NCBI RefSeq assembly: GCF_003334355.1
Contig: NZ_QOWP01000008.1
Strand: one strand, 5' to 3'
DNA length: 64,000 bases
Source: Escherichia coli
GTDB lineage: Bacteria; Pseudomonadota; Gammaproteobacteria; Enterobacterales; Enterobacteriaceae
Below are positions 49,801 through 52,800 of the stretch, in pieces. Every line of letters begins with the position of its first letter. Position 1 is the stretch's first letter. Position numbers: made by a program.

Positions 49801-52800
49801 GGTGCTTTAACAGTACCGTCGTCAACGTTTACCAAGCCGTTTTGCCACCGAGTCGCTGATGGCATAAAGCTGTGAGCCATTAATGGCGTCGTGGCTATCA
49901 GCCTTGATCGTGCCATTTTTTACATTAACGATCTTGCGTTGTAATGAGTCACTGCCGACAGAAACGCTATCGTCTTGATCCGCAATAGAACCTGCGCCCA
50001 GCGCGACAGAGTTAATACCGTTGGCATTGGTATTGCTCCCAAGCGCAAGACTATTATCGCCAGTTACAACACTGGCCTTACCTAAGGCAATAGCGTTTAA
50101 GCCACTCGACTGGCTACCATTACCCAGAGCGATAGCATCAGCGCCGTTAGCCTTGTTGCCCTGGCCAATAGCAATTGCACTATCTGCCAGAGCCTGGCTG
50201 CCATTACCCAACGCGATGCTATTCACTCCTTTTGCATGCGCTTTATTGCCGATAGCGGTCGCATTTTCAGCGGCTTCGCTTTCTGCTCCCAGCGCCATAG
50301 CATAATCTTGTGACGCATTGGCATTATCACCGAGACCGATGCTCATAATACCAGCAGCCTTAGCGGCATTTCCCAGCGCAATGGCGTTTGCTCCATCCGC
50401 TTTGGAGCTATCCCCCATAGCTATAGACAATCTACCCAGCGCTTTGGAATAACGACCAAGGGCCATTGAGTATTGGCCGAATGAATACGACGATGCACCC
50501 AGCGCGATACTCCTGTCACCTTCAGAGATTGCACTAACCCCAAAGGCCATTGATGCACCACCAATAGCATGGGTTTTTGAGCCGATGGCAGAGCTATATT
50601 GGCCTTCAGCTATAGCGTCATAACCTAAAGCGGTACTGGCACCAGCGTTGTTTAAAAAAATATTTGCTTTTGCACCTTTACCGATAGCAACCCAGCCGTC
50701 ACTAGCTGAGCCATCGCCGTAATCAACGCCCTGACCGTCGTAATTATCAGCCAGCGCCCCAAACGATGACAACAACCCACCTGCAACCAGCGCAGAAATT
50801 AACAGCTTACTGCGCCCAGATTTCTTGCCACGGCTTTTTGCCGTTTCGCTGGTAACAGTATAATTCCCTGTGGCAGGGTTCCAGATAACTTTAAATATTT
50901 TGTTCATTAATGATGCTCGCTATTCCTTGTTATAAGCGTACTAATTGCATTTATTTTTTGCTTCTTTTCTGCCGATTATCAGCAGCGGGAAGATTGTCAA
51001 ACTGAATATTTTCCATATTGATGGCTAACTTCAGATATCCCAGGTTATTTGGCGATACACCCTTCAGTGTCAAATTAATGTCTTGCCATTGACCTGGTAA
51101 TAATTTCAATGTGGATGTCATTGATGTGTTGAAAAGTAATTGTTGCCACCGGGCAAACTCTTTGGCATCGACAGGTTTTTCACCACCCCATGTCGCATTA
51201 AAGCCAATGTTTGAGATTGGTATACTTAATAAGTTGACCAGTGAAATATGAATAACACTGCCACTCTCTGTGGCGTCAATGGATAACACTCGGCCCGCTA
51301 AAGCCACCGAACCGTTGTTCAGGATGAAATACTTCGTTTTTGCTGGGTTAAACTCGGTAAAAATAAAAGTATTTTGTTGGTCTTTAACGGATTTAATTAC
51401 GTGAGTTAAAGTCTTTGTGCTGTTTATTATGCCAGTTTATTGTTTTTGAATAGTTTCGAGTTGACTCTTTAGCTGTGCTTGTTGTTTTTCAAGTAGCACA
51501 ATTTTATTGTTATGTTCTTCTTCTTGTTTCAGTAAACTACTTTCTGGCTTGCCTTCTTGAATGTAGTCACATCCCGTTAATGCGCAGAGAACTGAAACAG
51601 TGACAGCACTGAAAAAAATCTTCTTCAAGTTCATGTGAAAATCCTTATTGCCTCCGACCAGCGATCAATGCCGGTAGAGTTGTCCATTGTATTATTGGTG
51701 ATCTATGTTGCTTTACATTAATGACAGTGATGTGTGTCGATTAAATATTGTTTTAAGCATTCATCATAAAAATGTATCATTAGTTTCAAAAGATGTCTGT
51801 GTTTGTATGAATATAATATTTTTCGTGGATTCTAATGATGATTATTAATAAATGTCAAATATGAAAGAAACCATGTATGGGAAAAATTTTACAGATAATT
51901 GATTGTATGAATATGATGATTAAAATTTCACAATTAAATCCGAAAAAAAGAGACGTAACTGCTTGTTAATTAATAAATGATATCTTCTATATATTTTTAT
52001 TGTTTATAGGTGGTTATTTCGGTAAAGATGCATTTTCAGAATATCAACCAGCGGTAAATCGAAGTAAAGGGAGTGAATTGTTTGGTCATTAGGCGAGTAG
52101 ACAGGAGAGTCCCCGCATTGACCAGCTAACGCAAGTCAGATGCGGGTTGATACGATCGTACCAGTCGTCTGAGGGGCTTAAAACGCGGTCTTTGAAAACC
52201 CGGTCATCTCTTCCAGGCCCATTTCACGGCCCAGTGCGGTCATTGGGTGCACAACCACCAGTCCGCGAACACTTTTCTTCAGCTTGCCCATATCAGCCTG
52301 CTCTTTTTTGGTAATTGCGCGCTGAAACGGCATCTTCATCAGCTTCTGTGCTTCTTTACTCAGTTTTTGGCTATGAACCTCACGCAGGCGAGCAATTTCT
52401 GCTTCCAGCGTGGCTTTCTCTTTTTCCAGCTCGGCATATTTGTCTGCGGCTTCAACCAGCGACAGATCGGCCTGCTGGTGGCGGATGGCGTCCAGGCGAT
52501 CGCTGAGACGTTTGATTTCGTTTTTTTCGACTTCTTTCATGTGATGGCTTCTGATAAAGATAAATTTATAGCCCCTAGTATGCGCGACCAGGTGCTTTGT
52601 TCACAACTGATGACATTGTAATAGTTCTGCAACGTAATCATTAACATGCTCAAAAACTACGCAATCCGTTGATTAATTAAGAAATCTATAGAAAAAAGAT
52701 AATAAACAGCAGCGGATGATTATTGAGGATTCAGCACGTTTTCCTTAATGTCATCTTTACCGGGAACCTAAACTAAAATTGGCGGCCGCGCATTCCCGGC

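Follow-up and report, generated by a model that had tools for sequence, protein, structure and literature searches.

A stretch of 64,000 nucleotides from the Escherichia coli contig NZ_QOWP01000008.1 (assembly GCF_003334355.1), hereafter the window, contains a non-coding spacer of 543 bp between yibL and a homologue of the Salmonella gene sadB, and this spacer and its likely role in the control of an adhesin operon are considered here. It is framed by the ATG codon of the sadB homologue at 51634 and by the stop codon of yibL, which starts at 52178, both genes being read on the minus strand. Beyond yibL lie yibT, mtlR, mtlD and mtlA; on the other side of the spacer, the gene of a DUF3251 lipoprotein (the sadB homologue) is followed by the gene of a YadA-like trimeric autotransporter and by lldP. 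This is the locus called sadBA in Salmonella and upaG/ehaG in E. coli. In Salmonella, sadB and sadA form an operon, which is conserved between the mtl and lld operons and whose native expression conditions are unknown (PMC3953254).

A preliminary description of the window placed the borders of the spacer exactly where they are found here, and called the spacer AT-rich and free of open reading frames (ORFs) of 60 codons or more. Both statements are borne out. The GC content is 0.335 over the 543 bp, compared to 0.49 in the whole window, and decreases to 0.245 in a core of about 330 bp (51700-52030); 543-bp windows that are equally AT-rich make up only 6% of the 64 kb. The longest ORFs that start inside the spacer would encode 47, 30 and 30 amino acids, all on the plus strand, and the ORF listing contains in addition a 55-amino-acid ORF that starts in the spacer and runs antisense into yibL. 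In DNA that is so rich in A and T, long ORFs would be missing by chance anyway, so that their absence by itself is no argument.

The comparison set consisted of 13 loci from three genera (Escherichia, Pseudocitrobacter and a Salmonella-labelled genome), the spacers of which were aligned in the yibL-to-sadB orientation, i.e., along the minus strand of the window. The order lldP, YadA-like adhesin, DUF3251 lipoprotein, spacer, yibL is kept in all 13, which represent several E. coli lineages, E. fergusonii, E. marmotae, E. ruysiae, E. albertii, the Salmonella-labelled genome and two Pseudocitrobacter species, and the spacer is 489-572 bp long. Its sequence is near saturation, with mean column identity of 0.525, and only three 10-column windows have identity above 0.8. 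Two of these conservation peaks are TTTGACAT (-35) and CATTAGAATCC (-10), and the third is an 11-nt motif that we call Box 1. The TTGACA-18-TAGAAT site of the window scored 11/12 in the promoter scan. The pair of hexamers is kept in 13/13 loci, with a spacing of 18 bp in 12 of them and 17 bp in the remaining one, and it is the sole sigma70-like site with conserved position in the entire set; any other such site is seen in at most six loci. Everywhere the site lies between yibL and lldP, upstream of the sadB-adhesin pair and on the same strand. The suggestion that a spacer upstream of the lipoprotein and autotransporter genes could hold their promoter, made in the preliminary description, is thus supported by a sigma70-like site that has held its position in every locus.

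A conserved small ORF in the spacer was sought by all-versus-all comparison of the six reading frames, and was rejected: the only matches were over the promoter, and since they occur in several frames and on both strands, they represent conservation of nucleotides and not of a coding sequence. An 18-nt direct repeat (TGTTTGTATGAATATAAT at 51800-51817 and TGATTGTATGAATATGAT at 51900-51917, 89% identity, family D1 of the repeat scan) has its two copies 100 bp apart, one on each side of the promoter. In other lineages, the reverse complement of the repeat core, TATGAATAT, is found at the upstream position.

On the yibL side of the spacer, a stable, GC-rich hairpin is found 10-45 nt after the yibL stop codon in 13/13 loci, with dG of -8 to -29, with a different sequence in each locus, and in no case with a U tract. 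The sequence after the hairpin is rich in C, the C:G ratio ranging from about 1.6:1 to 8:1 and being roughly 3:1 or higher in most of the loci. RNAalifold analysis of the post-yibL region in 11 sequences gave no consensus pairs, the hairpins being located at different registers. The hairpin is likely to be the 3'-end or stabilizing hairpin of the yibL transcript, and its combination with the C-rich tract suggests a 3'-end hairpin with Rho-dependent termination. In E. coli K-12, a different sequence downstream of yibL acts as an intrinsic terminator (PMC12207403).

Box 1 is the strongest conservation peak of the spacer (identity 0.92, vs. the mean given above). Every one of the 13 loci has it, 207-222 bp ahead of the predicted transcription start (about 215 bp in the window) and 172-187 bp from the -35 hexamer. 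Extra Box 1-like copies, in direct orientation, exist in E. albertii, E. ruysiae and Salmonella, and are also seen at position +21 in five loci. Box 1 is located in no conserved ORF and has no match in Rfam, and none of the regulator and sigma-factor motifs with which it was compared matched it, these comparisons having been made by eye and not by searches. Several specific roles were tried and dismissed. Box 1 is not a promoter element, as it is outside of every conserved sigma70-like site on either strand; nor does it look like a site for an alternative sigma factor, as inspection by eye revealed no conserved GAACTT of sigmaE (16 bp), no GG/GC register of sigma54 and no CCCCAT of sigma32. 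Pairing with the ribosome-binding site of sadB was also rejected, because the 7-nt complement (repeat pair I3) is present in this allele only. Tentatively, Box 1 may be the operator of a conserved regulator that turns on, or else locks off, the cryptic sadBA/upaG/ehaG operon. Should this possibility be true, the protein that binds Box 1 would reveal the native expression signal of the adhesin.

Two other motifs are found beside Box 1, within 45 bp of each other. The first, AAGATGCATTT, overlaps Box 1 by 4 nt and is about 205 bp upstream of the predicted transcription start. It is the only perfect NsrR-type match in the 64 kb, and it occurs in this allele type only, being absent from other lineages. 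The same 11-mer is found in the top-scoring ytfE and hmp sites (PMC5320621). The NsrR operator has the form AANATGCATTT, ideally an 11-1-11 inverted repeat near a promoter; by our own count, the left half is perfect here, and the right half agrees at 4/11 positions. The second motif is a GTAAA-N5-GTAAA direct repeat, which fits the CpxR consensus and which has one match in the window, vs. 0.10 expected. It, too, is specific to this allele type, and is broken in E. coli 1303 and Res13, which belong to the same type. With about 30 motifs compared by eye, one or two perfect matches could be chance. The CpxR-like repeat probably is chance; the NsrR-type 11-mer is a lead, and possibly chance as well.

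IS1 elements have inserted in the spacer independently in at least two places (loci L022, L002 and L023). One insertion is beside Box 1 in TUM14664, with a 9-bp target duplication at 52026-52034; strain 102651 has the same insertion and a deletion that reaches into the adhesin gene. Another, in SH21PTE31, is in the predicted 5' untranslated region (5'UTR), with target duplication at 51677-51685.

We consider it probable that the spacer, placed between yibL and the sadB-autotransporter operon, is a control region with a sigma70 promoter that is set in AT-rich DNA and silenced by H-NS. The yibL-proximal part, about 130 bp, would finish the yibL transcript by means of the stem-loop and, after it, the C-rich tract. 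The remainder would be the control region of the adhesin operon, in which a strong, near-consensus promoter is placed within DNA of 24.5% GC and would give an operon mRNA that begins about 188 nt ahead of the sadB ATG. The most likely mechanism of silencing is that H-NS coats the AT-rich DNA that flanks the promoter on either side and keeps the operon silent; Box 1 would then be a candidate site for a further regulator. The H-NS part of this scheme is plausible. AT-richness is the one property consistent with H-NS that was computed here. UpaG is reported to be repressed by H-NS (PMC5012682, citing Totsika 2012). The regulatory region of upaG/ehaG (Valle 2008; Totsika 2012, as cited in PMC5012682), which has the same yibL/mtl-lld location and belongs to the same kind of adhesin as in the window, is reported to be under H-NS repression, with no expression in laboratory culture. 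Adhesins of Salmonella, including SadA, are mostly silent in culture (PMC3953254).

Several observations weigh against this interpretation. Promoter-like sites are not in excess in the spacer (6 were found by the promoter scan, vs. 3.9 +/- 2.0 in shuffled sequences), and it is only by its conservation that the putative promoter stands out. The high-affinity nucleation motif of H-NS, TCGATAAATT, is not enriched in the spacer. We infer both the start site and the H-NS silencing from sequence. Finally, Box 1 is conserved as well as the promoter is, and the model leaves it unexplained.

Salmonella enterica sadBA (Grin et al. 2014, PMC3953254) occupies the same chromosomal position as the window locus, and its native promoter was not characterized in that study. 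The Salmonella-labelled locus of our set (L011) shares with the window the long upstream spacer, the promoter hexamers and Box 1, and its SadB (P0019) is about 66% identical to the SadB of the window, which is cut short by a stop codon. The spacer of the UTI89 type, that of uropathogenic strains, is unrelated in sequence to the window spacer, with identity below about 65%. There is also a resemblance to the H-NS-silenced promoters of other E. coli surface factors, such as upaC, upaH, F9 fimbriae and sslE (PMC5012682): all share a long AT-rich upstream region, a good but silent core promoter and an adhesin cargo. Unlike those, however, the window locus is ancestral and syntenic across genera and is not a strain-specific island, and it is we who infer H-NS binding at it.

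The spacer is an ordinary, essentially known regulatory intergenic region. The locus, the structure of the operon, its loss from K-12 and repression by H-NS have all been published, and the import of the present analysis beyond annotation is small. It adds a precise promoter position that has phylogenetic support, together with predictions of the start and of the 5'UTR; evidence for regarding the "island" as an ancestral locus, the alleles of which have diverged strongly, and not as an insertion; and Box 1, the only item of some novelty, which may serve as a handle for finding the switch of the adhesin.

Table 1. Coordinates of genes and sequence features at the yibL-sadB spacer of the window
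Feature	Position	Strand	Remarks
yibL-sadB intergenic spacer	51635-52177	read on -	543 bp; bounded by the sadB-homologue ATG and the yibL stop
-35 hexamer TTGACA	51858-51853	-	TTGACA in 12 loci, TTGACT in one
-10 hexamer TAGAAT	51834-51829	-	Variants over 13 loci: TAGAAT, TAAAAT, TAGCAT, TAACAT
Predicted transcription start	51822-51824	-	Predicted from the position of the -10 hexamer
Predicted 5'UTR	51635-51821	-	About 188 nt; AT-rich; patchy sequence conservation
Shine-Dalgarno sequence AAGGA	51646-51642	-	In the predicted 5'UTR
Box 1, ATTCTGAAAAT	52042-52032	-	11 nt; consensus A(A/T)TC(T/C)GAAAA(T/A)
NsrR-type 11-mer, AAGATGCATTT	52025-52035	+	Perfect match; overlaps Box 1
GTAAA-N5-GTAAA direct repeat	52054-52068	+	CpxR-like
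C-rich, G-poor tract	52053-52111	-	21 C and 5 G in 59 nt; may resemble a Rho-utilization site
GC-rich stem-loop CCCGCAU...AUGCGGG	52146-52112	-	32 nt after the yibL stop; dG -20.5 kcal/mol; no U tract
yibL	52178-52540	-	120 amino acids (ORF list); named yibL in the annotation of E. coli 1303 and K-12
sadB homologue	50951-51634	-	DUF3251, SadB/YajI family lipoprotein; pseudogene here; names from annotation
YadA-like adhesin gene	45897-50907		Split into ORFs of 361 and 1339 amino acids that overlap at 49822-49916

The conservation of Box 1 also admits a different account, in which a specific transcription factor bound at this site, and not H-NS, would be the main switch, acting by DNA looping to the promoter or by counter-silencing, perhaps with a contribution of the NsrR-type and CpxR-like sites. 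In favor of it are the invariance of Box 1 in the 13 loci and its rank as the strongest peak, the constrained distance to the -35 hexamer, the additional direct-orientation copies in some lineages, and the proximity of the perfect NsrR 11-mer and of the GTAAA repeat. On the other hand, Box 1 matches none of the regulator and sigma motifs with which it was compared by eye, and its distance to the start exceeds 200 bp, a long way for direct control; the NsrR-type and CpxR-like motifs are limited to this allele type, the latter being broken in close relatives, and the number of motifs tried by eye makes chance matches possible. We therefore regard this account as rather unlikely. The case for an RNA element is weaker. 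The predicted 5'UTR is long, and some patches of its sequence are conserved, as could be the case in a structured leader, such as a thermometer or riboswitch, and an independent small RNA had been proposed in the preliminary description. However, a scan of 50800-53100 against Rfam gave no match at E<1 on either strand, RNAalifold found no consensus pairs in the predicted 5'UTR of 11 sequences, the fold z-score of -1.0 is weak, no intrinsic terminator is located between the promoter and sadB, and there is no second conserved promoter on either strand. The small RNA finds no support in these comparisons, and an RNA role of either kind appears improbable.

Another view is that the locus is decaying and that its spacer no longer has a function. 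In the window, codon 66 of the sadB homologue has changed from Gln to TAA (51437-51439), leaving a 65-codon ORF, when compared to the intact protein of E. coli 1303. The adhesin gene is frameshifted: the intact gene of TUM14664, to which it is 99.3% identical, measures 5025 nt, 14 nt more than the gene of the window. The nonsense codon and the frameshift together mean that the operon is decaying in this strain, and there are pseudogenes at the same locus in UTI89 and E2348/69, IS1 elements at no fewer than two places in the spacer, and a complete loss of the locus in K-12. Yet the promoter and Box 1 have stayed intact in the window as well as in the other genera, which speaks for purifying selection across the whole lineage, and many strains have both operon genes intact; a spacer without function is very hard to credit. 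The least probable option, which we deem next to negligible, is an invertible, phase-variable promoter similar to fimS or to the switch that controls the E. coli autotransporter UpaE (PMC6083910). The promoter is not flanked by inverted repeats, for which the repeat scan gave at best a pair of 14 nt with 79% complementarity; and among the BLAST matches listed, all are collinear and on one strand, both two-piece matches being explained by IS1, with six genomes that have matches at two places not inspected.

The window spacer is matched at 90-100% identity (96-100% in nearly all cases) in 2269 of 5426 complete E. coli genomes, in which it is never annotated, and other spacer types are found in a further 1881 genomes. 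Conserved synteny across three genera identifies the locus as ancestral rather than as a classical acquired island. Homology to K-12 stops exactly at 52177 and resumes at 45840, so that the entire spacer lies in a segment that is absent from K-12. The 61 nt that follow yibL in K-12 have a 98% match to the DNA that lies past the adhesin stop codon in E. coli 1303, which indicates a clean deletion of the spacer, sadB and the adhesin gene from K-12; a 5-kb deletion at the sadBA locus of K-12 has been reported (PMC3953254). There is no tRNA gene in the 43-55 kb part of the window; the gene order lldP/adhesin/sadB/yibL leaves no room for an integrase (the ORFs were not screened against integrase profiles); and the repeat scan, which covered 51400-52400 and not the far border at 45841, showed no flanking direct repeats. 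Synteny in three genera, the clean deletion in K-12 and the lack of a tRNA gene at the borders speak against the notion of a horizontally acquired island. What stands of the preliminary description is the observation itself and the promoter; the acquired island and the small RNA are not supported.

Downstream of the adhesin gene, after its stop codon, lies a REP-type palindrome, GCCTGATGCGCTACGCGCATCAGGC (45841-45896). K-12 and E. coli 1303 have a different REP variant at the same place (5029-5100 of K-12 locus L003), and the junction of the K-12 deletion is just beside it.

At least four allele types of spacer plus sadB are present in E. coli, as judged by comparison of 50951-52177 with loci L006 and L016-L019. 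The most similar pairs of types are 89-92% identical, and the least similar are at saturation (about 60%). The type found in the window, common to O157 and E. coli B strains, has diverged to saturation from all others, and SadB proteins of different types are about 64-67% identical. When the window allele is compared to other E. coli alleles, nucleotide identity is 62-64% in the spacer and about 72% in sadB, similar to the distance to other genera. yibL is 91-94% identical within E. coli, and the boundary of the divergence is the yibL stop codon. The alleles may have been replaced by recombination ending at this codon.

Distant homologues of SadB (P0133 and P0135) adjoin neither an adhesin gene nor yibL, and added no lineages to the footprint. 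An antisense ORF on the plus strand, at 48472-49026 (184 codons, 552 nt), is located inside the adhesin gene. An overlapping gene, oloz5029, is known inside ehaG of O157:H7 EDL933 (PMC9927249); the ORF of the window equals it in length and in antisense placement, a likeness of length and position, as the sequences were not compared. SadB with 95-99% identity to the E. coli protein is also encoded on two contigs labelled as Firmicutes, one from a "Bacillota bacterium" metagenome-assembled genome (JAEWTL010000024.1, L004) and another from "Bacillus hominis" (NZ_BOQD01000695.1, L005); these contigs most likely represent E. coli contamination or mis-binning.
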